From positions 1 to 37,407 of the IMG/VR virus record IMGVR_UViG_3300045988_109372: a DNA stretch of 37,407 bases. The stretch is one strand, 5' to 3'. Positions 11,009-36,141 of the stretch are shown piece after piece (position 1 is the first letter of the stretch; every line of letters starts with the position of its first letter). This stretch comes from a virus. The position numbers and the translations under genes were made by a program. The notes under the pieces were generated by a model that saw nothing but the letters and a program-made list of their open reading frames with translations, ran no database searches and was not told the DNA's origin.

Positions 11009-11575
11009 ATGCCCAGAGGAGCAAAAACAATAGAAAACTGTGCGGGACACAGGACAAAGAAAGAAAAAGAAGCCCGTGAGAAAGCTGAAGCGGCTATGCT
11101 CACAGGGCAGAGGTGCTTCGAGCGTGACTGTGTAAAGGCTGATTTGGTAGCGCACAAGGAGTACCTGCGGCTGACAAAACTGCTCAGCACGATACAGAAG
11201 AATGATGCGCTGTATGGTGCAAGCATCAACAGATATTGCGAGCTGTACAGCGAAGTAAACGCTGTCAAAGCGGACTCAGTAACACAGAGAGCAGTGCTGT
11301 CAAAGATTGAGATAGCTTTTAATAATTTATCGGATGAGGAAATAACAGGCGATGAGCTGATGAAGTTTACAAAACTGATGTCCGGAACTCTTGCCAAGAT
11401 AGCCGACCTTGATAAGATAATAATGCAAAAGCGAAAAATGATGAGCGACATTGAAAAGGAAAACGGCTGGACGGTACTTTCCGCTATCAGAGCAATACCG
11501 AAGCAGGCAGAAAATTCCGAAGATGACGTTTTAATGAAGATATTACAGGGAGGTGAGAGCAATGAAGTTGTTTGA
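11009..11575 (+). CDS. terS: Terminase small subunit (P27-family-like)
   Basis: The layout matches remembered P27-family TerS. It has a basic N-terminus (PRGAKT...GHRTKKEKEAREKAE), then A..EYLRL...L...NDALYGASINRYCELYSE, and a C-terminal EKENGWT..SAIRAIP. It sits between HNH and the portal gene. Confidence 0.65.
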   Translation: MPRGAKTIENCAGHRTKKEKEAREKAEAAMLTGQRCFERDCVKADLVAHKEYLRLTKLLSTIQKNDALYGASINRYCELYSEVNAVKADSVTQRAVLSKIEIAFNNLSDEEITGDELMKFTKLMSGTLAKIADLDKIIMQKRKMMSDIEKENGWTVLSAIRAIPKQAENSEDDVLMKILQGGESNEVV

Positions 11576-13142
11576 TAAGATATTCAGACGTGAAACTGAA
11601 GGCACGGATATTGAAGTCGCTTTCGGGCTAAAGCAGATAAGCAATATAACGAGAGAACAGGCACTTGAGATCCCTGCGGTTTCAGCGGCTGTTAATTTTA
11701 TAGCCGGCACAATAGCAAGCCTGCCGATAAGGCTGTATAACAGCAACGATGAAGATCAGACGGCGGCGGAAATCACAGAAGATAACCGCCTGTATCTGCT
11801 GAATGAAGAATCAGGCGATACGCTTAATCCGACAGAAATCAAGCGTGCGGTTATCCGTGATATGCTACTTGACGGAACGGGATATATGCACATAGAGCGG
11901 AGCGGAAACGAGGTGTCGGCTCTCAGATATGTCCGTGACAGCGCCGTAAGTGTGGAGAAAAATTCGGACGCTATCTATAAGACGCTCCGTATGCTCGTTG
12001 ACGGAAGAGTGTACAATCCGTGGGATTTCGTTATTCTCAGCCGTAACAGCGTTGACGGAGGAAAGGGAGTAAGCATACTCGCCGAAAATCCCACACTCTT
12101 GACATCAAGCTATATGCTGTTACAGCTCGAAAAGGCGATGAGCCGCAGAGGCGGTAACAAGAAGGGCTTTCTGCGCACTGAGCAAAGAGTAGACGATAAC
12201 GCATTACAAAAAATTCGTGAAGCGTGGAAAAAGCTGTACAGTAACAACGGTGACGGTATGATGATACTGCAGAACGGGCTCGACTTCAAGGAAAGCAGTT
12301 CCACCGCCGTTGAGATGCAGTTAAATCAGAACAAGGTGACAAATGCAGAGCAGATAGCAATGCTGTTTGGCTTATCTCCCGATGTGCTGTCGGGCAGAGC
12401 CGATGACAGAACGTATATCAACAGCATAAGAACAGCCGTACTGCCTGTTGTGTCTGCGTTTGAAATGGCACTCAACAGGGCGCTGCTGCTTGAGAAAGAA
12501 AAGCATAGTAAGTATTTTGTCATAGATACTTCTGAACTGCTCAAGGCTGATATTCTGACACGCTATCAGGCTTATCAGATAGGACTTGCGGCGAATTTCT
12601 TACAGCCTGACGAGATACGCTTCAAGGAAAACCTTGCGCCGCTCGGACTTGACTTTATCAAGCTCGGACTTAATGATGTGCTTTACGACCCTACGACAAA
12701 GCAGATATACACACCGAATACCGACAGTCACGCTAAAATTGATGATGCGGGCTTGCAAAGCGGCGATGAGGGTGGTATAATAACAGAAAAGCGTCAAAAG
12801 TCCGGTAAAGGCGGAGGCGGAAATCCATATCACGCCGCAGACGGTAAGTTTACGAATGGACCGGGCGGGAAAATTATATCCGTTACGGTCGACGATGACG
12901 GTACAGTGACTACGGTTTATAAAGCACAGGCTAAAACAAAATATGCACCGTCACCGCAGAGAAATCACAGCGGTATACAGGTAAAGCCAAAGACTTATGC
13001 AAAGCTGTGCGGAGAGTTTAATACGAAGTATCCGGGAAGCAGAAAAGGATTTCAAGGTACGGTTTTTAAAGGAAAATATCAGTACTTGGCAACTTCAGAC
13101 GGAGAAGGCGGAGTGATTATAAACCGTAAAATTAAATTGTGA
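11562..13142 (+). CDS. Portal protein (HK97 family) with a C-terminal extension of about 120 aa
   Basis: Its size, position and motifs (ALEIPAVSAAVNFIAGTIASLP, NPWDFVILS, MLFGLSPDVL) fit the Phage_portal family. ATG 11562 lies 8 nt after GGGAGG. After about residue 400 there is a Gly-rich linker and a basic tail containing NPYHAADGKFT. Confidence 0.85.
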   Translation: MKLFDKIFRRETEGTDIEVAFGLKQISNITREQALEIPAVSAAVNFIAGTIASLPIRLYNSNDEDQTAAEITEDNRLYLLNEESGDTLNPTEIKRAVIRDMLLDGTGYMHIERSGNEVSALRYVRDSAVSVEKNSDAIYKTLRMLVDGRVYNPWDFVILSRNSVDGGKGVSILAENPTLLTSSYMLLQLEKAMSRRGGNKKGFLRTEQRVDDNALQKIREAWKKLYSNNGDGMMILQNGLDFKESSSTAVEMQLNQNKVTNAEQIAMLFGLSPDVLSGRADDRTYINSIRTAVLPVVSAFEMALNRALLLEKEKHSKYFVIDTSELLKADILTRYQAYQIGLAANFLQPDEIRFKENLAPLGLDFIKLGLNDVLYDPTTKQIYTPNTDSHAKIDDAGLQSGDEGGIITEKRQKSGKGGGGNPYHAADGKFTNGPGGKIISVTVDDDGTVTTVYKAQAKTKYAPSPQRNHSGIQVKPKTYAKLCGEFNTKYPGSRKGFQGTVFKGKYQYLATSDGEGGVIINRKIKL

Positions 13143-13564: not shown

Positions 13565-13591
13565 TAAAATACGAAAGTGAGGATTTTTAAC

Positions 13592-13990
13592 ATGAACAAA
13601 ATTAAGAAAGTCATTGTCGCCGCAGTTGGTGTTGTACTGTCAGCAGTTCTTCTATGTGGTTGTACCGAAGCGAGTAGAGTAACATACAATGTGCAGAAAG
13701 AAGCTGATAATTTTAATGTCACAAGGCGGCTGTCGGTTATAAACGCAAGAAGCGACAAACCTGTGCTTGAGCTTATCGGTAATTTTTCTATCTCAAACAA
13801 CGAGGAAAATGAGCTGGTTGTAACGATAGAGGTAGCTCCGAACGTGTACAAGGTTGATTATGTTTATCTTAACGACTGGACTATGTACACAGTAGAAGAC
13901 GTAAGCGGCGCATACGTTGACAAGTATCATTATGAAATGAATTTCTTGCCCGAAATGATTATACCGATTACTTTTACAAATAAAGACTGA
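13592..13990 (+). CDS. Predicted lipoprotein (132 aa) inserted in the head module
   Basis: MNKIKKVIVAAVGVVLSAVLLCGC has a basic n-region, a hydrophobic core and an L-C-G-C lipobox. ATG lies 8 nt after GTGAGGA. Hairpin elements A and B bracket the gene. Confidence 0.7.
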   Translation: MNKIKKVIVAAVGVVLSAVLLCGCTEASRVTYNVQKEADNFNVTRRLSVINARSDKPVLELIGNFSISNNEENELVVTIEVAPNVYKVDYVYLNDWTMYTVEDVSGAYVDKYHYEMNFLPEMIIPITFTNKD

Positions 13991-14668: not shown

Positions 14669-15820
14669 ATGAATTTAAAAGCACTCATCGAAAAGAGAAA
14701 CGCTCTTATCGCCGATATGAAGTCACTCTGCGGTAAGGCTACAGCAGAAACAAGGGCGATGACAGCAGAGGAGCAGACAGACTATGACGCTAAGAAGGCG
14801 GAAGTCGAAGCGCTGAATAAGACAATCCGCTCAATCGAGGAGCAGAACGCTCTTAATCTGAACTCTGCAAAGTCAGACGGCACAGCAACCGACAAGAAGC
14901 AGGCGGAAACAAGAGCCTTCGAAAACTATCTGCGCACAGGTCAGATAGTCGAAACAAGAGATGATGTCAATCTGACAAAGGGCGATAACGGCGCAGTCAT
15001 CCCTGCGACTATCGCAAACAAGATAATCCGTAAGGTTATCGACATCTGCCCTATCTATCAGATGGCAACAAGATACACGCTCGGCGGCACTCTCTCGATC
15101 CCCTATTATGACGAAGAAACGCAGGCTATCTCAATGGCGTATGCCACAGAGTTTACGGACCTTGCAAGCACATCGGGCAAGTTCCTCAGCATCGAGCTTA
15201 AGGGCTATCTTGCAGGTGCGCTCTCTAAGGTTTCAAGAAGCCTTATCAACAATTCGCGGTTTGACATCGTTTCTTACGTTATAAACGAGGTTTCGATTGC
15301 GGCGGCAAAGTGGATCGAAAACCAGCTTATCAACGGCACAGCAAGTAAGATAGACGGTCTTGCCGCAGGCGTTACACAGGTGGTAACAACTGCATCGGCA
15401 ACAGCTATCACGGCAGATGAGCTTATCGACCTGCAGGAAACGATCCCCGACGTATATCAGGATAACGCCTGCTGGATCATGAACAAGGCTACAAGAACCG
15501 CTATAAGAAAGCTCAAGGACAACGAGGGCAGATATATTCTCAATCCCGATGCAACGGCAAAGTGGGGCTATACGCTTTTCGGCAAGCCCGTATACACAAC
15601 CGACAGCGTATCGGCTATTGCTTCCGAAAAGACAGCTATCTACTACGGCGATATGAGTGGTCTTGCAGTTAAGACCTCCGAAGATGTGTCTATCCAGATA
15701 CTCAACGAAAAGTACGCAACACAGCACGCTGTCGGCGTTATCGCATGGGTGGAGATTGACGCAAAGGTTGAGAATGCTCAGAAGATTGCCGCCCTTAAAA
15801 TGAAGAAAGCAGGAGGCTAA
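14669..15820 (+). CDS. Major capsid protein (HK97 family) with an N-terminal delta/scaffold-like coiled coil
   Basis: 383 aa, following the protease. The N-terminal part (about 100 aa) is a charged coiled coil (KALIEKRNALIADMK...EEQ). The body has typical HK97-fold family motifs. Confidence 0.9.
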   Translation: MNLKALIEKRNALIADMKSLCGKATAETRAMTAEEQTDYDAKKAEVEALNKTIRSIEEQNALNLNSAKSDGTATDKKQAETRAFENYLRTGQIVETRDDVNLTKGDNGAVIPATIANKIIRKVIDICPIYQMATRYTLGGTLSIPYYDEETQAISMAYATEFTDLASTSGKFLSIELKGYLAGALSKVSRSLINNSRFDIVSYVINEVSIAAAKWIENQLINGTASKIDGLAAGVTQVVTTASATAITADELIDLQETIPDVYQDNACWIMNKATRTAIRKLKDNEGRYILNPDATAKWGYTLFGKPVYTTDSVSAIASEKTAIYYGDMSGLAVKTSEDVSIQILNEKYATQHAVGVIAWVEIDAKVENAQKIAALKMKKAGG

Positions 15821-17578: not shown

Positions 17579-18061
17579 GTGTTCACAGAACTTTTAAACA
17601 AGAAAATTTACATCACAGATACTTTATATCTGCGATATGACATAAAAGCGTTTATTGAAGCGGAAGAAAAGGGCATCAGCCCGTTTGAACTGACATTCCC
17701 TCTGCCGCTTGACTACATCAGAGCGGGGCTTCGGTGTTGCTTTGATGAACTGGGGTTCAGCTCGGCACAGCGTTCCGAAATAGTGTCCGACCTAACAACA
17801 CAGTTATCACAGGAATATCTGCAGGACAGGGTGCTTGCCGCAACGACCGCCGCACTTCCTGCGCCGATAGTGGGAAGCAAGCCGACAGAAGAAAAGCCCG
17901 ACTTCAAGAAGCTCCGCAGTCTGTTTATAGATATTATGGGACGAACGGAGGAAGAATTCACATATTCCACGCTGTACGAAATAACGGACAGATGGAACGA
18001 CTACGCAACGTTTATGGGGTACAAAGCCCCGACAGAGAGGTTTGTACAGTATGACGATTAA
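17579..18061 (+). CDS. Putative tail assembly chaperone
   Basis: GTG start 6 nt after AAAGGAG. It follows the tube gene. The C-terminal half (EEEFTYSTLYEITDRWNDY) resembles the T-part of G/GT chaperones. No downstream frameshift extension is possible, because TerL follows. Confidence 0.45.
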   Translation: MFTELLNKKIYITDTLYLRYDIKAFIEAEEKGISPFELTFPLPLDYIRAGLRCCFDELGFSSAQRSEIVSDLTTQLSQEYLQDRVLAATTAALPAPIVGSKPTEEKPDFKKLRSLFIDIMGRTEEEFTYSTLYEITDRWNDYATFMGYKAPTERFVQYDD

Positions 18062-19712
18062 AGACAGCCGTGCATACAAATACGCCGTGTGGGCATCGCA
18101 GGACAGCTCCGGCAAGGTCGGAAGATACGTCAGAAAGCAGTGCGCCGAATGGCTTAAAGCTGTCGATGACGGTTATGTAGATGTTCAGGAATGGAACAAG
18201 ATAACCGCACTGCTCAAAGCCATACAGCACCCGGACTTAGGCCGTGATATGTACTCATCGCTTGAAGATTACAGCTTGCTTTTTATCTATGCGGTGCTTT
18301 GCACAAAAACAGACGGAAAACTGTATTACAGCACGGGACTGCTCGAAATCGCCCGAAAGAACTACAAGACGTTCACAGCGGCGGTAATATTCATCATCGG
18401 TATGCTGACGCTGCCCCGATTTTCCCGTCTGTTCTCTGTAGCTCCCGACTTAAAGCTGTCAAGCGAGCTGAAAGTAGCAATTAAGAAAATCATAAAATCT
18501 TCACCGCTGCTTGAAAAGCATTTCAAGGTTATGCGGTCTGAGATACGCTGTCTGATGTGCGACACGGAGTACACGCCGCTTGCGTATAGTAAGGATAAGC
18601 TGGACGGTAAGCTGGCTCACTTGTTTCTTGCCGATGAAGTCGGGGCTATGGACGGCTATCCGGTTGAAGCAATGCGTTCCTCGCAGATTACGCTTAAGAG
18701 CAAGCTCGGAATACTGATTTCCACACAGTACCCGAATGATGATAACGGCTTAAAGGACGAAATCGACATAGCCAAGAAACAACTTGACGGGGTGTACAGC
18801 TCCGGCAAGAAATATTTTGCATTGCTGTATGAGCCGGACATTGAGCTTGTACCCGACTGGAAGACGAACGACAGCGTGCTGTATCAGTCGAACCCTGTAG
18901 CTGTCGATAATGCAGATCTGTTCTCGGAACTGAAAGACAACCGTCAACTTGCCGTGCTGTATGAAAACAAGCGCGAGAACTTCCTCTGCAAGCACTGTAA
19001 TATTCAGTACAAGGGTGTCGGCAGTGAGGGCTATGTTGACCTTATATCCGTGCAAAACTGCTCTGAGGACGTGCCTGACGAGTTCTGGCGGGGGAAGATA
19101 GTCTATCTCGGGCTTGACCTCTCACAGACTGAGGATAACACAGCGCTCGCTATGATATGCTATCACGAGGGCAAGATATATGTTAAGGTGGTAGCGTTTG
19201 TTCCTGCCGAAAAGGTTGAGGAAAAATCGGTAAAGGAGCACATCAATTACAAGACACATATCGCAAACGGTGATTGCTTTGCGTGCGGCGATTATATCAT
19301 AGACTACGGATTTGTGGAAAATTACATACTGACGCTGAAAGAAAAGTACGGCGTTATAATAGCTCAGCTTGGCTTTGACCGCTGGAACGCACTCTCAACG
19401 GTGCAGAAGCTCGAAAGCGCAGAAGATCCGATAGAGTGCGTAGAGATACGACAGCATTCAAGCGTGCTTCATGCTCCGACAAAGTGGCTCAAAGAACAGA
19501 TACTCACAGGAAATGTCGTTTTCGCAAAGAACGAACTGCTTGAGATAAATTTCAGCAACGCAAGATGTACAGAGGACACAAATTTAAATAAATACGTTAA
19601 TAAAAAGCGCTCTGCCGGCAAGGTCGATATGGTGGTGTCGCTGATAAATGCGGTGTATCTGCTTCAGCAGGAGATACTCAACGGCGATTGCGGCGTGTTT
19701 GTGCAGTATTGA
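18051..19712 (+). CDS. terL: Terminase large subunit (Terminase_1 family) in a non-canonical position
   Basis: The N-terminus is AYKYAVWA...GRYVRKQCAEWL. It has a Walker-A-like ARKNYKT, Walker B LFLADEVGA, the nuclease-half motifs GLDLSQTEDNTAL and FDRWNA, and a C-terminal KVDMVVSLINAV. All are in the order remembered for PF03354-type TerL. ATG 18051 is preferred over TTG 18042. Confidence 0.85.
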   Translation: MTIKDSRAYKYAVWASQDSSGKVGRYVRKQCAEWLKAVDDGYVDVQEWNKITALLKAIQHPDLGRDMYSSLEDYSLLFIYAVLCTKTDGKLYYSTGLLEIARKNYKTFTAAVIFIIGMLTLPRFSRLFSVAPDLKLSSELKVAIKKIIKSSPLLEKHFKVMRSEIRCLMCDTEYTPLAYSKDKLDGKLAHLFLADEVGAMDGYPVEAMRSSQITLKSKLGILISTQYPNDDNGLKDEIDIAKKQLDGVYSSGKKYFALLYEPDIELVPDWKTNDSVLYQSNPVAVDNADLFSELKDNRQLAVLYENKRENFLCKHCNIQYKGVGSEGYVDLISVQNCSEDVPDEFWRGKIVYLGLDLSQTEDNTALAMICYHEGKIYVKVVAFVPAEKVEEKSVKEHINYKTHIANGDCFACGDYIIDYGFVENYILTLKEKYGVIIAQLGFDRWNALSTVQKLESAEDPIECVEIRQHSSVLHAPTKWLKEQILTGNVVFAKNELLEINFSNARCTEDTNLNKYVNKKRSAGKVDMVVSLINAVYLLQQEILNGDCGVFVQY

Positions 19713-19737
19713 CAATATTGTCTGTTCGCGGTATAAT
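19709..19737 (+). promoter_or_regulatory. Consensus sigma-70/sigA promoter (TTGACA-17 nt-TATAAT) for the moron cassette
   Basis: TTGACA at 19709..19714, overlapping the TerL stop codon. An exact 17-nt spacer follows, then TATAAT at 19732..19737. AAAGGAGG and ATG 19763 lie downstream. Confidence 0.7.
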
Positions 19738-30983: not shown

Positions 30984-31490
30984 TTACTTATTTTTGCTTT
31001 GATTTTCTGATATAAAGTGCTTAATGCCTCTGTAATATCCAAGCAAGAACGCGGTTTGTTCTGCGCTACTTGCCACCTTGTCATTTGTGTAATCGCTGCG
31101 ATCAATAGTTGACATAACCTCAGCTATCCATATGTTCTCCTGCTCTGATAAAATGCACATTGGCATAGCTTTTTTGGCAAGTTCCAGCAATGCAATCGTT
31201 GGGTGCTCTACGGCATAAACTAGTTCGGTAGGTGCTGTGATTTTTGGAATTTTCGATGATATATAACCATAAATTTCACCGACGCTCTCAAACATATCTG
31301 CTCTTGTAAATTTAACTTTCTCGGCAACGTCAAAATCATCAAGAACGGTTTTAAGTTTTTTTACAAGTTCAGGGGAAGGATTTCTTAAGCCGTTCTCAAT
31401 CCTGCTTAATTGCGATTTATTCGTGTCACAAATCTGAGCTAATTGCACAAGCGTGTACCCTTTTGCTTTTCGCGCTTCTTTTAACGTCAT
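30984..31490 (-). CDS. XRE-family HTH protein with an uncharacterised C-terminal domain of about 110 aa
   Basis: MTLKEARKAKGYTLVQLAQICDTNKSQLSRIENGLRNPS is a classic XRE HTH. An AAAGGA RBS precedes it. It is the second gene of a leftward operon. Confidence 0.75.
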   Translation of the reverse strand: MTLKEARKAKGYTLVQLAQICDTNKSQLSRIENGLRNPSPELVKKLKTVLDDFDVAEKVKFTRADMFESVGEIYGYISSKIPKITAPTELVYAVEHPTIALLELAKKAMPMCILSEQENIWIAEVMSTIDRSDYTNDKVASSAEQTAFLLGYYRGIKHFISENQSKNK

Positions 31491-31543: not shown

Positions 31544-31888
31544 TTAGTCCTTAATCTCTTCTTCCGCCGCTGCCCAGACATTTCCGCACTCGGCGAGGTC
31601 ATATTCGCCGTCCTCGTCATAGTGACGTTCTTCGATATAGCTGACTTCGCAGTCTAAAATTTTTCCACCCCACGTGCCGGTAAGACGCGCAACAGTCTTA
31701 TGCTTTGAAAGTTCTGTTTTTGCTTCTTCAAGGTTATCATATAGCTTTTCTTCAAAAGAACCGTTCCGTGTGCCGTTTAACTGATCGAAAGCTTCGTATA
31801 TTGAGCTTTTTCCTGCCTTGATATCCTTGATTGCTCTACTGTCGTTGATCTCGCCGTACTCTGTTACTAATGCGAATTTCTTTTCCAT
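31544..31888 (-). CDS. Hypothetical acidic protein (114 aa)
   Basis: ATG at 31888 (minus strand) follows GAGGAT. The longer ORF up to 32068 would run through the promoter. No family was recognised. Confidence 0.55.
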   Translation of the reverse strand: MEKKFALVTEYGEINDSRAIKDIKAGKSSIYEAFDQLNGTRNGSFEEKLYDNLEEAKTELSKHKTVARLTGTWGGKILDCEVSYIEERHYDEDGEYDLAECGNVWAAAEEEIKD

Positions 31889-31948
31889 GATTTTATCCTC
31901 ATCTTTCTCCGGAAGTGTTGCCGCTCCGGTCGGCTTTAGTATGTCTGT

Positions 31949-31977
31949 ATTATAACACGCTTTGCTGAAATTGTCAA
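31949..31977 (-). promoter_or_regulatory. Consensus promoter (TTGACA-17 nt-TATAAT) reading leftward
   Basis: The minus strand has TTGACA (plus-strand TGTCAA at 31972..31977), an exact 17-nt spacer, and TATAAT (plus-strand ATTATA at 31949..31954). It lies about 60 nt upstream of ATG 31888. Confidence 0.7.
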
Positions 31978-32088
31978 TAGAATTTTGGAAACTTTCAGAG
32001 TTTTGTACATTTACACAAATAAAAGCAATCTTTATTGTGCAATTTGCTATAGTGCTTAATACTGGCAAAATATTAGTTAGTTTCCTAA

Positions 32089-32112
32089 CTTGACATGCAT
32101 TTTGACATGCAT
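32089..32112 (+). repeat. attP arm-type repeat, copy 1 (CTTGACATGCATTTTGACATGCAT)
   Basis: This 24-mer contains two TGACATGCAT 10-mers and is identical to 32313..32336. A tandem AATTTCAGT follows at 32122..32130 and 32132..32140. Confidence 0.6.
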
Positions 32113-32180: not shown

Positions 32181-32209
32181 AACCGCTTAAGCAATACGCT
32201 TAAGCGGTT
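32181..32209 (-). terminator. Hairpin terminator downstream of the tRNA fragment
   Basis: A perfect 10-bp stem, CCGCTTAAGC-5 nt-GCTTAAGCGG. On the minus strand it is followed by TTTT. Confidence 0.55.
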
Positions 32210-32312: not shown

Positions 32313-32336
32313 CTTGACATGCATTTTGACATGCAT
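32313..32336 (+). repeat. attP arm-type repeat, copy 2 (CTTGACATGCATTTTGACATGCAT)
   Basis: Identical to 32089..32112 and in the same orientation. It ends 5 nt from the integrase stop codon. Confidence 0.6.
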
Positions 32337-32340
32337 GTTG

Positions 32341-33516
32341 TCACGCTTGCTTTTCGAGATACTCATCAAGCTTGTTAATGCTTTTCTTTTTGTACTTTTC
32401 GTCCAGGTGTGTATATATAGACATTGTAGTTTTTATGTCGGCGTGTCCCGCTTGTTCTTTTGCTGTCAAAACATCTACCCCTGCAAGGTACATCAAAGTG
32501 ATGAAAGTGTGTCTGAGCCAGTGCGGAGTGATACGAGGTATCAAGAACGGCTTTTCTATCGGTGCATACTTTGACGGACCTTTTCCGCCTGTCTGTATAC
32601 AACTCGCCCAGTCACCGTATTTGATATTTAAATCGTCAAGATAGCTTTCCCACATACGGCTAAATCCTGTTTCGGTCATCAAAGAGCCTTTGACCGTGGG
32701 ACACACAAGTCCGATCGGGTTGTGCGCAGTGCTTCTAAGGTAGTTGACGAGCTTACCGGGGATATATACTGTTCTTGTCGCCGCATCAGTTTTGCCGCCT
32801 TCTTTAACATATGGCTTGCCTTTTATCATTGCAACAGATCGCTCAACCTTTATAGTGTGTGTGTCAAGATCAATATCCTGCCACGTCAGAGCGAGCAGTT
32901 CACCTCTGCGCAAGCCCGCATACATCATAATCATAGCGGCTGTCTGTGCTCTGTGCGGGGTATCGGTTATCCAGGACTGCTCCTCTTCGGTCAGAGCTCT
33001 ACGAGTGGATTTTTCTGCCGTCTTAGGTATCTTTACCGCAGATGCGCAGTTGTAGTCAAGCACTCGATTTTCGATTGCTAGTTGTATAATTTGTTTTGCG
33101 ACATTTCGGATTTCAATTAAAGTTTGCTTTGCGTATGGCTTTCCAGTTTTTTCAGACGGCTCATCGGCACAGTCAAGTATAACATCTTGGATATCTGTAG
33201 CTTTTAGCTTAGATATGCTAAACCTATGTATAGGCTCGAGATTTTCAAAACGTTTTGAGTATGCTTCGTAGCGCTTTGATGATACTTCTATCTTTTTTAA
33301 TTTCAGCCATTTTTCACCCCAATATCCGAAGCTGTCGCGATCAGCTGTTATATCCAAGCCTTTACCTTGTCTGACTTTGATATCGTTAATTTGCTTGTCT
33401 ACTTCTTTTATGGTATCGCCATACACTACCTTGTATTTGCGTTTACCGTTTACCATGCCTAGATAGACTTGACCTTGATACCGTCCGTCAGATCTTTGAG
33501 TATATTTCTTTGCCAT
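32341..33516 (-). CDS. int: Tyrosine site-specific integrase
   Basis: It has an N-terminal arm-binding/SAM-like region. The catalytic region contains AGLRRGELLALTWQDID, HWLRHTFIT and GHADIKTTMSIYTHL (R..H-x-x-R..H/Y signature). It is adjacent to the tRNA fragment. Confidence 0.95.
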   Translation of the reverse strand: MAKKYTQRSDGRYQGQVYLGMVNGKRKYKVVYGDTIKEVDKQINDIKVRQGKGLDITADRDSFGYWGEKWLKLKKIEVSSKRYEAYSKRFENLEPIHRFSISKLKATDIQDVILDCADEPSEKTGKPYAKQTLIEIRNVAKQIIQLAIENRVLDYNCASAVKIPKTAEKSTRRALTEEEQSWITDTPHRAQTAAMIMMYAGLRRGELLALTWQDIDLDTHTIKVERSVAMIKGKPYVKEGGKTDAATRTVYIPGKLVNYLRSTAHNPIGLVCPTVKGSLMTETGFSRMWESYLDDLNIKYGDWASCIQTGGKGPSKYAPIEKPFLIPRITPHWLRHTFITLMYLAGVDVLTAKEQAGHADIKTTMSIYTHLDEKYKKKSINKLDEYLEKQA

Positions 33517-33558: not shown

Positions 33559-34086
33559 TCATATATTTGCGTTTTTACCGTAGAATATCTTGCCGCTTTC
33601 CAAGTTCTTTTTGTAATAGCAGGATTTAGAACGGATTATATCCGGGTGCAAGCACTTTTTAGCATCTGAACACTTCAAATATAATCCGCAACATCCAAAA
33701 TGCTCTGTTGGCTCAAATATTCTGACATTCTCATCAGTAATAAGTTCAGCAGCTTTTACAGCTTCGTTTTTTGTGTGGAATGTACATTGTATGAAATTCT
33801 GAGGGCTTTTCAGCAATTTTGTACCTGCAGGAGATATTTCAAGCGTATCATAAACTCTTTTATTGCAAGAAATTACCGTGAATTTTGTATTCACTTTGAA
33901 GAAAAGACATTTTTCAAAATAGACTGAATACCCGGTAAGTTTGTCCTTGCTTTTGTTTTCCTGTATGCTGAAAAGTCCGTTTGAACATTTCCATTTTGCT
34001 GAAACTGTTAATATTATGTTTTCTAAAGTGGTTTTACAATCTAAATCTTCGGGTTCATTTTCAAATAATGCCATCTGCTCTATCAT
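33559..34086 (-). CDS. Hypothetical Cys-rich protein (175 aa)
   Basis: The start overlaps the upstream stop by 4 nt. The C-terminal cluster is HFGCCGLYLKCSDAKKCLHPDIIRSKSCYYKKNLESGKIFYGKN (6 Cys plus His, metal-binding-like). No family name could be assigned with confidence. Confidence 0.6.
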   Translation of the reverse strand: MIEQMALFENEPEDLDCKTTLENIILTVSAKWKCSNGLFSIQENKSKDKLTGYSVYFEKCLFFKVNTKFTVISCNKRVYDTLEISPAGTKLLKSPQNFIQCTFHTKNEAVKAAELITDENVRIFEPTEHFGCCGLYLKCSDAKKCLHPDIIRSKSCYYKKNLESGKIFYGKNANI

Positions 34087-35168
34087 AACTGCACGTCCTT
34101 TTCTTTTAGTATCATAATCGGATAGCCTTTGCTTCTGAGTTCTATTGCTTTTTTCGCCTTAGTGCCATAAGTTCCGCAAGCCCAGCTGTCAGACCCTCTC
34201 TCACCTATAAGAAGAATGTCGGTTTTTCTTGTAACGCCGCTAACTACTGTAGCGCCTATTTCGGACAATCTTTCTTGTACTTCTTGCCTACTCCCATAAT
34301 CGAAATCGCCGGTCAGACAGATAGACTTTTTGCTAAGTTCTACATCAACAGCGCCTATTTCTGTATTGAGTGGATCAATTTGTGCTTTGAAAAATTCAAG
34401 AAGATAATCAAGCTCGGATTGTTCTATTATCCCGTCCTCAATTACTTTCCAGATTGCGTTATTTATAATGTCGTATGGGTAATTACCTGCAAGCTGCTCA
34501 TTGTTAATCATCCATTCTTCAAGACCTAACAGTTCTTCTTGTGTCAGAATGTCATCGCAGGTTATACCTATCAATATGCCGTGCAATGTTTGTAACCCTT
34601 TTGTAATAGGATTCAGCACTCTTTGTTTCGGCGGCTTTATCTCAAGTACAAGAGCGGAATGATTTTTCAATGCTGTCATTAAGCTGTGAGTATGGTAGCA
34701 GTCTGCAAGAGCTCTGTGATGTATACCGCTATCTTTTATTCCGAGCTGTATTATCATATCTTCGAGCTTGTGGCTGACATCGGGGTATTCTTGCTTGCAC
34801 ACAGCTAAAGTATCATATGTATCATTTTTAAAATCAAGCCCACAAGCAACGCATTTTTTACTGATAAAATTAGCGTCAAATGCAATATTATGTCCTACAA
34901 CCGTATCATTATCAATAAATCGCAGAAAATCAGATAGGGTATCGTCAAGCTCTTTTGCATCTGCCAACATATCATCAGTTATGCCTGTAATCTGAGAAAC
35001 AGCTTTCGACAATGGCTTGCTTGCTTTTATAAGCCGAGAAAATTCAGCGACAACTAAGTTATTACGAACACGCAAAGCACCGATTTCAATTATATCATCC
35101 TTGTCCGGTGACAAGCCTGTTGTTTCAATGTCTACTATTGTGTAGTCGTTCAGTTCCTGTATATTCAT
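34083..35168 (-). CDS. DEDDh 3'-5' exonuclease (DnaQ/epsilon-like) fused to a helical middle domain and a C-terminal BRCT domain
   Basis: ExoI is VDIETTGL, ExoII is GHNIAFDANFI and ExoIII is HHRALADC. The C-terminus ICLTGDFDYGSRQEVQERLSEIGATVVSGVTRKTDILLIGE...KAIELRSKGYPIMILKE is BRCT-like, as in NAD-ligase C-termini. Confidence 0.8.
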   Translation of the reverse strand: MNIQELNDYTIVDIETTGLSPDKDDIIEIGALRVRNNLVVAEFSRLIKASKPLSKAVSQITGITDDMLADAKELDDTLSDFLRFIDNDTVVGHNIAFDANFISKKCVACGLDFKNDTYDTLAVCKQEYPDVSHKLEDMIIQLGIKDSGIHHRALADCYHTHSLMTALKNHSALVLEIKPPKQRVLNPITKGLQTLHGILIGITCDDILTQEELLGLEEWMINNEQLAGNYPYDIINNAIWKVIEDGIIEQSELDYLLEFFKAQIDPLNTEIGAVDVELSKKSICLTGDFDYGSRQEVQERLSEIGATVVSGVTRKTDILLIGERGSDSWACGTYGTKAKKAIELRSKGYPIMILKEKDVQL

Positions 35169-35398
35169 TGTTGCACCTCATTTTCACAATCTCCAACAAA
35201 TTTTATATCAGAATACAAATGACCTCTGCTTATATGCTTTAATTCATGTTTTAAAGCTAACATTTGTTTAGCAGGGCACTTGTTCTGATTTATAAAGACA
35301 ATGTAATCACCGTTTTTTATCACAGTTACACCGTTGACGGAAGACGGTAAATCTGCTGTATAAATATAAACGCCGTCAATATCACACTCAATTCTCAA
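35165..35398 (-). CDS. Minimal ImmA/IrrE-like metallopeptidase (77 aa)
   Basis: It has the HExxH motif LKHELKHISRGH, preceded by GVTVIKNGDYIVFINQN as in ImmA/IrrE proteins. The TTG start overlaps the repressor stop. It is much shorter than typical ImmA. Confidence 0.55.
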   Translation of the reverse strand: MRIECDIDGVYIYTADLPSSVNGVTVIKNGDYIVFINQNKCPAKQMLALKHELKHISRGHLYSDIKFVGDCENEVQQ

Positions 35399-35772
35399 TT
35401 ATCATCACCTTCAGACAACAATGCTTCAATTATTTTCGCAGCTTTTTCTACATCTTTTTTAGTGGCATTTTTGGTAAGTGAAAATATCATCCTAAGCTCC
35501 GGACGGTTTTTTAGTTCTTCAAGATATTCAGTGAGTTCCTCGTCATCATTAACAAGAGCGTCCGATGAATCTTCATTCCAACCCATTAAGTAAGCAGGAG
35601 TAGTGCTAAGTGCATTAGCAATCAGCTCAATCCTATCAGAAGGAATGTTAGTAATAATTCCTTTCTCGTATTTATAAATGTTTTGCTTGGTCGTGTTAGC
35701 TTTTTCGGCAAGTTCTCCTTGCGATAATTTAGCTTCTTCACGAAGTAGTTTTATTTTTTCGCCTATAGTCAT
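35395..35772 (-). CDS. CI/ImmR-like XRE-family repressor
   Basis: MTIGEKIKLLREEAKLSQGELAEKANTTKQNIYKYEKG is an XRE HTH. It is divergent from the Cro-like gene. ATG 35772 is preferred over GTG 35781 (AAGGGG RBS). Confidence 0.85.
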   Translation of the reverse strand: MTIGEKIKLLREEAKLSQGELAEKANTTKQNIYKYEKGIITNIPSDRIELIANALSTTPAYLMGWNEDSSDALVNDDEELTEYLEELKNRPELRMIFSLTKNATKKDVEKAAKIIEALLSEGDDN

Positions 35773-35792
35773 TTTTGTCACCCCTTGTATAT

Positions 35793-35821
35793 ATTATATA
35801 CTTAATACGGTAACTTGTCAA
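35793..35821 (-). promoter_or_regulatory. Leftward consensus promoter of the lysogeny operon
   Basis: The minus strand has TTGACA (plus-strand TGTCAA at 35816..35821), a 17-nt spacer, and TATAAT (plus-strand ATTATA at 35793..35798). The -35 lies inside the left arm of a 15-bp inverted repeat (35811..35825). Confidence 0.7.
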
Positions 35822-35854
35822 GACAAAAAAGTTAAAAAAAGTGTTAAAAGTGTC

Positions 35855-35883
35855 TTGACAAGTTACAAAAGACGTGATATAAT
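35855..35883 (+). promoter_or_regulatory. Rightward consensus promoter of the early (Cro-side) operon
   Basis: TTGACA at 35855..35860, a 17-nt spacer, and TATAAT at 35878..35883. The -35 lies inside the right arm of the inverted repeat (35851..35865). Confidence 0.7.
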
Positions 35884-35887
35884 CAGA

Positions 35888-35904
35888 GTAACTTAAAAAG
35901 TTAC
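35888..35904. promoter_or_regulatory. Operator-like 17-bp palindrome GTAACTT-AAA-AAGTTAC
   Basis: A perfect 7+3+7 palindrome between the -10 and the RBS of the Cro-like gene. The AAGTTAC half-sites recur next to both -35 boxes. Confidence 0.6.
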
Positions 35905-35916
35905 GGAGGTGAGAAC

Positions 35917-36141
35917 GTGGTAGACACAAATAAGTTAAGAGCTATGTGGGTAGCAAAAGGGCTAAGGCAGGCTGATGTTGCAAGACTGATTGATATGTCA
36001 GAAAGAACATTTTCAAGAAAAATGAAAAGAGGCATATTTGGCAGTGATGATATGGAAAAGTTAATAGACGCTTTGCAAATATCTGAGCCTTGCTCTATTT
36101 TTTTTGCTAACAAAGTAACTTGTAAAGTTACTAAGATGTAA
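35917..36141 (+). CDS. Cro-like/XRE-type HTH early regulator
   Basis: GTG start 8 nt after GGAGG. LRAMWVAKGLRQADVARLIDMSERTFSRKMKRG is an HTH. It is divergent from the repressor. Confidence 0.7.
   Translation: MVDTNKLRAMWVAKGLRQADVARLIDMSERTFSRKMKRGIFGSDDMEKLIDALQISEPCSIFFANKVTCKVTKM
36115..36131. promoter_or_regulatory. Second operator-like palindrome GTAACTT-GTA-AAGTTAC
   Basis: It has the same 7-nt half-sites and spacing as 35888..35904. It is located in the last codons of the Cro-like gene, about 227 bp downstream. Confidence 0.5.

Follow-up and report, generated by a model that had tools for sequence, protein, structure and literature searches.

The 37,407-nucleotide (nt) IMG/VR virus record IMGVR_UViG_3300045988_109372, analysed here over its full length (positions 1 to 37,407; hereafter the window), is the complete genome of a temperate siphophage of gut Clostridia. 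Its lysogeny operon carries two cargo genes between the immunity genes and the integrase: one encodes a 361-amino-acid (aa) protein in which a DEDDh exonuclease domain, a helical MID domain and a BRCT domain follow one another, the other a 175-aa Cys-rich protein. Comparative genomics indicates that these two proteins are partners, found as neighbours or fused across hundreds of lineages, and that the Cys-rich protein, here termed Cys5, represents an undescribed family. We tentatively propose, rating the idea at rather less than an even chance, that the pair is a lysogen-made nuclease module that acts at nicks or ends of DNA and keeps out superinfecting phages, a form of anti-phage defence.

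An exonuclease and a Cys-rich protein that travel together

The surroundings of the Cys-rich gene were compared in 80 loci from species-representative genomes, nearly all of Clostridia and the rest of other anaerobes, and in 68 IMG/VR viral contigs with relatives of the protein, 19 of which are near-identical to the window and are not independent. The collections were scanned with exact peptide patterns, so the counts are lower bounds and favour conserved members. Genes in the fetched loci were called by a simple open reading frame (ORF) rule, and neighbourhood context was scored with ad hoc profiles built for this analysis.

A DEDDh-BRCT exonuclease adjoins the Cys gene or is fused to it at 69 of the 80 genome loci, lying directly upstream on the same strand at 39, directly downstream at 15 and within the same protein at 15; at the remaining 11 the Cys gene is apparently alone. 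Of the 68 viral contigs, 57 likewise have the exonuclease next to the Cys gene or joined to it. The possibility that a variable effector domain takes the place of the exonuclease was rejected, since a divergent RNase_T domain is still present in eight of ten partners that single-sequence phmmer searches had missed. When ten fusion proteins were scanned against Pfam, RNase_T was found in every one and BRCT as well in eight, with the Cys domain at either end; among family representatives, fusions account for 35 of 146 and join the Cys domain solely to exonuclease, MID or BRCT domains. A motif-only profile search for fusion partners in a large protein database yielded short fragments only. Since either gene order occurs and the fusions involve both ends, the comparative case for the two proteins being physical or functional partners is strong. 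An initial annotation of this DNA had asked whether the two genes always co-occur and whether they sit in prophage immunity regions: the Cys protein almost always adjoins or is fused to a DEDDh-BRCT exonuclease, and the pair is found mainly in such regions, between repressor and integrase.

Close relatives of the window carry five in-frame deletion or fusion versions of the cassette (P0001, P0003, P0005, P0177 and P0200), namely three ImmA::Cys proteins, one ImmA::MID-BRCT protein and one exonuclease-MID::integrase protein. The ImmA::Cys version P0003 (L082/L083:7001-7849) occurs in nine contigs, six of them of 50-200 kb, and L082 (93.7 kb), the one of these that was examined, proved to be an integrated prophage. 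Each of the other four versions is known from no more than two contigs and might reflect misassembly.

Architecture of the exonuclease-MID-BRCT protein

The exonuclease gene (34083-35168, minus strand) opens with a DEDDh 3'-5' exonuclease domain (34689..35138, minus strand) that matches Pfam RNase_T at 1.3e-30, scoring 107.6 bits against a curated threshold of 24, and NCBIfam TIGR00573 with 105.4 bits against 71.5. The three DEDDh motifs named in the initial annotation were all located: DIETTG at residues 13-18 (35115-35132) provides Exo I (D-x-E), HNIAFD at residues 93-98 (34875-34892) Exo II (x-x-D) and HRALADC at residues 151-157 (34698-34718) Exo III (H-x4-D). The catalytic motif columns are at least 90% conserved among 51 homologues. 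Within the PDB, the closest solved relatives are the PolC exonuclease 2p1j (1.4e-28), DnaQ, the DinG exonuclease and Cas2-DEDDh. We infer a catalytically intact exonuclease of the DnaQ/PolC type, predicted to act on DNA because its nearest solved relatives are DNA exonucleases.

Residues 188-267 (34368..34607, minus strand) make up the MID domain, 80 aa that AlphaFold models as four helices with a predicted local distance difference test score (pLDDT) above 90 over most of the domain. It falls within a match to phrog_3989 (5.6e-41, residues 180-359) and is duplicated in tandem in some relatives. Sequence profiles and a fold search gave no significant Pfam or PDB match for it, just faint TerB/EF-hand noise that was shared with searches of the Cys module.

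The C-terminal domain (residues 278-361; 34086..34337, minus strand), initially described as BRCT-like, is a BRCT domain of the LigA/RFC1 type that passes the Pfam gathering threshold (25.7 bits against 21.3; 1.4e-5). With its model as query, Foldseek returned the LigA model 9a6z_B (1.6e-5), the RFC1 BRCT structure 2ebu (1.5e-4, probability 1.0) and RFC1 BRCT-DNA complexes, and sequence matches to LigA in the PDB reach 1e-4. An insertion of about eight residues (W..YG) sets it apart from the BRCT of LigA. The RFC1 BRCT binds 5'-phosphate DNA junctions; judged from structural neighbours alone, the window BRCT may do the same.

Against a sister phage whose exonuclease is 95% identical, the ratio of nonsynonymous to synonymous substitution rates (dN/dS) of this gene is 0.15, consistent with purifying selection. 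A protein search of GenBank phages matched the exonuclease domain alone, at a coverage of at most 55%. The best cultured match, phage phiCDHM13, was rejected as a comparable case: it has a plain exonuclease beside parA.

The Cys-rich partner

The Cys-rich gene (33559..34086, minus strand) encodes an alpha/beta N-terminal domain (residues 17-123; 33718-34038), which is fast-evolving, and a C-terminal Cys module (residues 130-175; 33562-33699) of the form F-G-C-C-x5-C-S-D-x3-C-x-H-x8-C-x-Y-x2-N-L-x2-G-K-I-F-Y-G-x-N. A dense cluster CC..C....C.H......C had been noted at the outset as suggestive of a metal site; the cluster does have a metal-type pattern, with five invariant cysteines, but its spacing needs correction to C132-C133-x5-C139-x5-C145-x-H147-x8-C156. 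Across 253 relatives C132, C133, C139, S140, C145, C156, Y158 and G170 are invariant, and H147 is kept in 74%. The spacing C-x5-C-x5-C-x-H is reminiscent of iron-sulphur (Fe-S) sites of the Rrf2/IscR type, which we treat as a lead only.

The protein has no family match in Pfam, NCBIfam, PHROGs or PADLOC, no match among PDB sequences and none in a protein search of GenBank phages. Its AlphaFold model (pLDDT 82, with a confident N-domain) has no significant counterpart among PDB and BFVD folds; the best hit, the MotA DNA-binding domain (E 0.02), suggests a double-wing resemblance that we treat as a lead only. An exhaustive profile search nevertheless collected 1,339 relatives, counted as representatives of 50%-identity clusters. 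Relative to the sister phage the gene shows a dN/dS of 0.11, again indicative of purifying selection, and the 13 differences between the two proteins all fall in residues 5-107.

An operon shared with the repressor

The lysogeny genes occupy the minus strand at 30.9-35.8 kb. Four of them, encoding the repressor (35395..35781), a 77-aa ImmA-like protein (35165..35398), the exonuclease and the Cys-rich protein, had been described as overlapping by 4 nt at every junction, and the coordinates proved exact: 35395-35398 (TTGA), 35165-35168 (ATGA) and 34083-34086 (ATGA). A Shine-Dalgarno-like sequence stands 5-10 nt 5' of each downstream start in the chain. The consensus promoter placed ahead of these genes is a perfect TTGACA-17-TATAAT (35793..35821, minus strand), PRM-like and presumably lysogenic, whose predicted transcript start, about 7 nt past the -10 box, falls right at the ribosome-binding site; four perfect sites of this type occur in the whole window against 0.01 expected from shuffles. 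This promoter drives the repressor, the ImmA-like gene, the exonuclease-BRCT gene and the Cys gene, in agreement with the operon first suggested, and probably the integrase too. From promoter to integrase no credible terminator was found, the single site being a weak, chance-level 5-pair stem (35505..35488) inside the repressor gene.

The tyrosine integrase gene (32341..33516, minus strand; Phage_integrase 4.1e-20) starts 42 nt after the Cys gene with an AGGAGG of its own and is probably the last gene of the operon. The first convincing terminator, a bidirectional intrinsic one with a 13-pair stem (32181..32209), lies past it and ends the operon. The block 33559-35781, which had looked A+T-rich by eye, has a G+C content of 36.9% compared with 44.8% in the rest of the genome.

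The repressor matches Pfam HTH_3 (1.1e-12), phrog_8 (2.7e-23) and, over its full length, PADLOC capH (3.8e-12). Its start is probably the ATG at 35772, giving 125 aa, rather than the GTG at 35781, because the latter overlaps the AAGGGG ribosome-binding site. The 77-aa protein retains the HExxH motif (HELKH), invariant in an alignment with full-length ImmA-like proteins, and gives faint matches to Pfam M78 (0.0066), phrog_20936 (2.5e-6) and phrog_87 (8.5e-5). The initial assignment as an ImmA-like HExxH protein holds. Membership of the peptidase family itself is not supported: the protein scores 16.7 bits with Peptidase_M78, under the Pfam threshold of 22, and terminates at the E-x-x-A/third-ligand Glu region of M78 peptidases, with the C-terminal half and its helices missing.

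Such mini-ImmA proteins, of 67-77 aa, with the HExxH helix kept and the third ligand and C-terminal helices absent, are seen elsewhere. Forms of 67 and 72 aa also precede the exonuclease gene in L007 (3217-3432) and L029 (1051-1251), an ad hoc profile matches 14 of the 68 viral loci, the PHROG families that match the window protein are short (profiles of 72 and 91 positions), and the form is found in PHROGs 20936 and 20886 as well. The mini-ImmA is a form that recurs in independent lineages, but it is not assignable as a peptidase. The order of helix-turn-helix (HTH) repressor and HExxH metallopeptidase-like gene is shared with the ImmR/ImmA and CapH/CapP pairs; the window protein differs from their peptidases in its 77 aa, its stop at the third-ligand region and its sub-threshold Pfam score, and the cargo does not depend on a pair of this kind, being found with S24 repressors too.

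Genomic setting of the cassette

Distribution is sporadic, with 113 confirmed matches in 185,579 species genomes in the scan by exact peptide patterns. In the 68 viral loci an HTH repressor lies upstream on the same strand in 57, an integrase downstream in 55 and both in 52, and the layout repressor, exonuclease, Cys protein, integrase recurs in about 80%. Twenty-eight genome loci have an integrase downstream within 2.5 kb and only two have one upstream, and an HTH gene is directly upstream in 26; many of the remaining genome loci end early at contig ends. Among the minority of loci that are chromosomal, a class in which the Cys gene comes first, followed by a 357-aa exonuclease, has non-syntenic surroundings. 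At the nucleotide level, the lysogeny region has no match among GenBank phages.

The composition of the immunity genes varies from locus to locus. In the sister phage (L081) an S24 LexA-type repressor is followed by exonuclease-BRCT, Cys and integrase genes, with no ImmA; L087 has CI(S24), exonuclease-BRCT, Cys, RhuM and integrase; L086, beside clpXP, has HTH and ImmA-like genes, an exonuclease-BRCT-Cys fusion and an integrase; and L089 has CI(S24), exonuclease-BRCT and integrase without a Cys gene. L090 runs from HTH through a HIRAN protein, ImmA and exonuclease-BRCT to a 174-aa protein in the Cys position and a serine integrase; the start of the 174-aa gene overlaps the exonuclease stop by 4 nt, which makes it a candidate Cys gene by position alone. 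Many other loci have S24 repressors as well. The cassette therefore combines freely with immunity genes of the S24 or ImmA type and with integrases of the tyrosine or serine class, a behaviour that marks it as cargo and argues against a specific tie to ImmA. The earlier suggestion that the pair might couple DNA damage or DNA-end sensing to ImmA-dependent induction is accordingly unlikely, because the sister phage carries the same cassette behind an S24 repressor and lacks ImmA.

A homologue of the window exonuclease in quite different company is P0229 (L084:1-15122), which is of similar length and 35% identical over 96% of the query. Its exonuclease and MID parts match the PADLOC defence candidate PDC-S48, and it has no Pfam BRCT match and no Cys partner. 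Nearby are genes for a Fic protein, a Prok-E2/ThiF/JAB (E1/E2/JAB) protein, a 1,937-aa helicase with DUF4011, AAA_11, AAA_12 and DUF3320 domains, and a serine recombinase, surroundings that look like a defence island. A 174-aa protein after the giant helicase was considered as a Cys partner and rejected as a membrane protein.

A wider MID-BRCT family reaching to phage K139

A scan of viral contigs for the MID-BRCT half revealed about 30 further contigs (L192-L222) in which a MID-BRCT protein of 210-250 aa comes directly after an HTH-S24 repressor, with neither an exonuclease nor a Cys partner. The arrangement extends to cultured phages. In Pseudomonas phage phi1 (L224:2962-3612) a repressor is followed by a stand-alone MID-BRCT protein, and in Vibrio cholerae phage K139 the gene next to cI, orf2 (L223:3201-4106), encodes 301 aa of MID-MID-BRCT. 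K139 Orf2 and the window protein align by BLASTP at 2e-24 (29% identity over 179 aa), and the MID and BRCT domain profiles match Orf2 at 1e-19 to 1e-21. The annotation of K139 describes a lysogenic operon cI-orf2-glo-int with a mapped PL promoter; no statement of function for orf2 was found in the literature.

K139 Orf2, with its counterparts in phage Kappa (kp3), PHROG 3989 and the phi1-like 'BRCT domain-containing protein', is thus a homologue of the window protein over the latter's MID and BRCT half. The likeness extends to gene order: orf2 comes right after the repressor in a lysogenic operon, next come another small cargo gene and the integrase, and stop and start codons overlap. In the window just the 77-aa ImmA-like gene stands between the repressor and the exonuclease gene, and the L081 exonuclease-BRCT gene follows its repressor directly, as orf2 does. 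The differences are that Orf2 has two MID domains, no exonuclease domain and no Cys-rich partner, that its hosts are Proteobacteria, and that glo codes for an exclusion protein of the periplasm with no relation to the Cys protein. The window gene is on these grounds the nuclease-bearing, two-component Clostridial branch of a family whose unvarying trait is co-transcription with the repressor.

Relation to known systems

The closest defence-associated model is PADLOC PDC-S48, which has 411 positions and exonuclease, MID and BRCT parts. The window protein matches it at positions 4-170 (1.3e-31) and weakly at 336-382 (1.4e-4); its middle part is matched only by homologues, the close ones covering 4-255. 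The PDC families comprise 145 untested candidates, predicted from genes that lie inside BREX, DISARM and type I restriction-modification loci (bioRxiv 10.1101/2024.01.29.577857). Two differences apply: PDC-S48 is a single-gene candidate, while the window gene has a Cys partner that looks obligate, and PDC-S48 was set by its location in known defence loci, while the window gene is part of the repressor operon of a prophage. The anti-phage role raised in the initial annotation gains indirect support from this match to what is itself a candidate family.

For operon logic the nearest parallel is lambda cI-rexA-rexB, in which a two-protein exclusion system is co-transcribed with the repressor and made only in lysogens. 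RexAB is a membrane-depolarising abortive-infection system and not a nuclease, and rexAB and the window cargo share no sequence or domain similarity. Nucleases of the same superfamily have been implicated elsewhere: prophage-borne DEDDh exonucleases of another subfamily defend against RNA phages (PMC13344964), and, in Clostridia, DEDD 'diDNases' are associated with genomic islands (PMC11706625). In the literature, no paper was found that describes the pair, joins DEDDh, BRCT and prophage, or mentions PDC-S48.

Possible functions of the cassette

Exclusion or defence ranks first in our view because the operon follows a logic like that of rexAB and K139, the protein is linked to PDC-S48, the cassette behaves as cargo, and one relative lies in a setting that resembles a defence island. 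The arrangement would parallel lambda cI-rexAB and K139 cI-orf2-glo-int in tying the cargo to the repressor. As we envisage it, the exonuclease-BRCT and Cys proteins would form a complex in which the Cys module, with zinc or an Fe-S cluster bound, controls the nuclease or directs it to its target. The BRCT would dock on 5'-phosphate junctions at nicks, gaps or ends, in the manner of the RFC1 BRCT, and so present the facing 3' end to the exonuclease. In the lysogen the complex would attack incoming or replicating foreign phage DNA at its ends, at unsealed cos sites or at Okazaki nicks, ahead of the host LigA, and the integrated prophage would be spared.

A broader and bolder version, which we consider possible but doubtful, would make MID-BRCT proteins a multi-phylum family of lysogen-made junction binders, stretching from K139 to gut Clostridia. 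The branch in Clostridia would amount to a new anti-phage system of two components, in which a Cys5 subunit, probably of Fe-S type, controls or targets a BRCT-tethered 3'-5' exonuclease that destroys the ends and unsealed nicks of incoming phage genomes in competition with LigA.

Several considerations weigh against a defensive role. The sparing of host DNA has no visible basis in the sequence. The pair, PDC-S48 and the K139 Orf2 family are all candidates so far, and metal binding, complex formation and junction binding are things that we infer. The nuclease-free MID-BRCT proteins found after repressors (the approximately 30 contigs, K139 and phi1) raise the prospect that the core of the protein may act on lysogeny control. 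Finally, DnaQ of mycobacteria, which has been studied more than any other exonuclease-BRCT protein, serves replication proofreading and not defence, and a minority of chromosomal loci, described below, fit a role in DNA repair as well.

The third of these points leads to the idea that the MID-BRCT core, with or without an exonuclease, tunes the lysogeny switch. By binding or processing nicks, gaps or 3' ends it would alter the single-stranded DNA that activates RecA and hence the firing of the S24 or ImmA-type system; in these strict anaerobes, the Cys module could also make the switch responsive to redox state or oxygen. The repressor is the most constant neighbour of MID-BRCT, directly upstream and co-oriented even where integrase or nuclease is lacking (L192-L222, K139, phi1), RecA-dependent S24 repressors are common partners, and the BRCT is of a type that binds the 5' junctions of gaps. 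The HIRAN-domain protein at L090 (1959-2789), which stands between repressor and ImmA in a prophage with a serine integrase, would fit as well, HIRAN domains being known to bind 3' DNA ends. On the other hand, one and the same cassette occurs with S24 and ImmA-type repressors, and it is also found outside prophages, at ligA, at non-syntenic chromosomal sites and in the defence-island-like setting. Control of induction makes no sense for the PDC-S48 relatives inside restriction-modification and BREX loci, and a gap-widening exonuclease and a gap-blocking junction binder would have opposite effects. On balance we rank this explanation second and hold it to be rather unlikely.

The cassette might instead be a fitness gene for DNA repair or fidelity, a nick- or gap-end-cleaning or proofreading unit working with the NAD-dependent ligase, comparable to the second proofreader of DnaQ-BRCT type in mycobacteria, and carried by prophages to the benefit of the host or for the protection of their own DNA. 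In three Clostridial species, at the chromosomal loci L008 (5683-8276), L073 (5884-8426) and L080 (5542-8186), the Cys gene and a housekeeping-type ligA (NCBIfam 2e-226) overlap or are contiguous, at L056 (2902-6464) in a fourth genome an exonuclease-Cys fusion follows ligA, and other chromosomal loci lie beside lepA or glgCD. The BRCT is LigA/RFC1-like, and confinement of the family almost wholly to anaerobes makes an Fe-S partner plausible. An insertion shared by the BRCT domains of LigA and the exonuclease at the ligA-linked loci was sought and is absent: the LigA proteins there possess a canonical BRCT, which lacks the W..YG insertion seen in the MID-BRCT family.

The comparison with mycobacteria cuts both ways. 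Mycobacterial DnaQ is an exonuclease-BRCT protein that acts as a second replicative proofreader and has a C-terminal clamp-binding motif, Q[Y/L]ALF, and its antimutator function needs both the exonuclease activity and the BRCT (PMC11348249). The window protein shares the DEDDh exonuclease and C-terminal BRCT; it differs in that DnaQ is a core chromosomal gene with the clamp motif, no MID and no Cys partner. The C-terminus of the window protein, ...ILKEKDVQL, contains no such motif, and its score with NCBIfam PRK06063 (NF004719), 57.4 bits against a cut-off of 389, is far under the level of a DnaQ equivalog. A repair function is further at odds with the sporadic distribution of the family, with its non-syntenic flanks, with the placement of most loci in prophage lysogeny modules and with the in-frame deletion variants among close relatives. 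A housekeeping replication or repair unit unlinked to mobile elements, the outcome that the initial annotation had set against its own idea, describes a minority only, where the Cys gene follows ligA; as a general reading it was rejected, since flanks are non-syntenic and most loci are in prophages. We rank a repair or fidelity factor third and think it unlikely.

That the cargo is a decaying passenger, a useless leftover of phage recombination beside a truncated ImmA, as the truncation itself and the ImmA::Cys, ImmA::MID-BRCT and exonuclease::integrase fusions of close relatives might suggest, is very improbable given a dN/dS of 0.11-0.15 for both genes, intact catalytic residues and five intact cysteines, retention of the cassette in the 19 near-identical viral contigs and in many distant ones, and the recurrence of the mini-ImmA form in independent lineages.

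Other features of the phage genome

PHROG profiles place the structural, lysis and replication genes on the plus strand and identify the portal, major head (capsid) protein, large terminase, tape measure, tail proteins, holin, endolysin and primase/helicase. The gene order is unusual in that the portal (11553-13142) and major head protein (14669-15820) genes stand ahead of the large terminase gene (18042-19712), the last bases of which are overlapped by a perfect consensus promoter (19709-19737). A gene resembling those for recombination directionality factors (phrog_478, 6.7e-35) is located at 13577-13990, among the head genes.

Divergent from the lysogeny operon, an early PR-like promoter (35855..35883, plus strand; perfect consensus with an extended -10 TG) serves a cro-like gene (35917-36141) with HTH matches. 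The operator region (35810..35866) is a perfect 16-nt inverted repeat with arms at 35810-35825 and 35851-35866, one per -35 box, and a third, 78% copy lies at 35887-35904. An inverted repeat over both -35 boxes has the appearance of a classical operator arrangement.

Just downstream of the integrase, direct repeats of CTTGACATGCATTTTGACATGCAT at 32089-32112 and 32313-32336, with a third partial copy at 32325-32348, lie on both sides of the terminator at 32181-32209. Copies of CTTGACATGCATTTTGACATGCAT probably represent arm-type sites of the integrase or the attP region. Between the lysis genes and this attP-like region are two minus-strand genes, for a 168-aa HTH protein (30984-31490) and an unassigned ORF (31544-32068). 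Since a perfect consensus promoter with an extended -10 (31977..31949) falls inside the latter as listed, its true start is probably an internal ATG just downstream; the two genes look like a separately expressed moron pair.

Conclusions

Through adjacency and fusions, a family of some 1,300 relatives without a database match, Cys5, gains a firm functional partner, and the anonymous single-gene defence candidate PDC-S48 becomes a testable two-protein unit. The cassette also shares a homologous half with K139 orf2, a gene that has sat unexplained in a lysogenic operon since the phage was sequenced. If the BRCT and the Cys module do recognise strand breaks, the pair would offer a parallel to the eukaryotic single-strand-break machinery, with its zinc-finger nick sensors and BRCT enzymes. 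Clostridia of the gut have plentiful prophages that are difficult to study, and a widespread lysogen cargo that acts on nicks or ends could shape superinfection, induction and genome stability in the gut microbiome.

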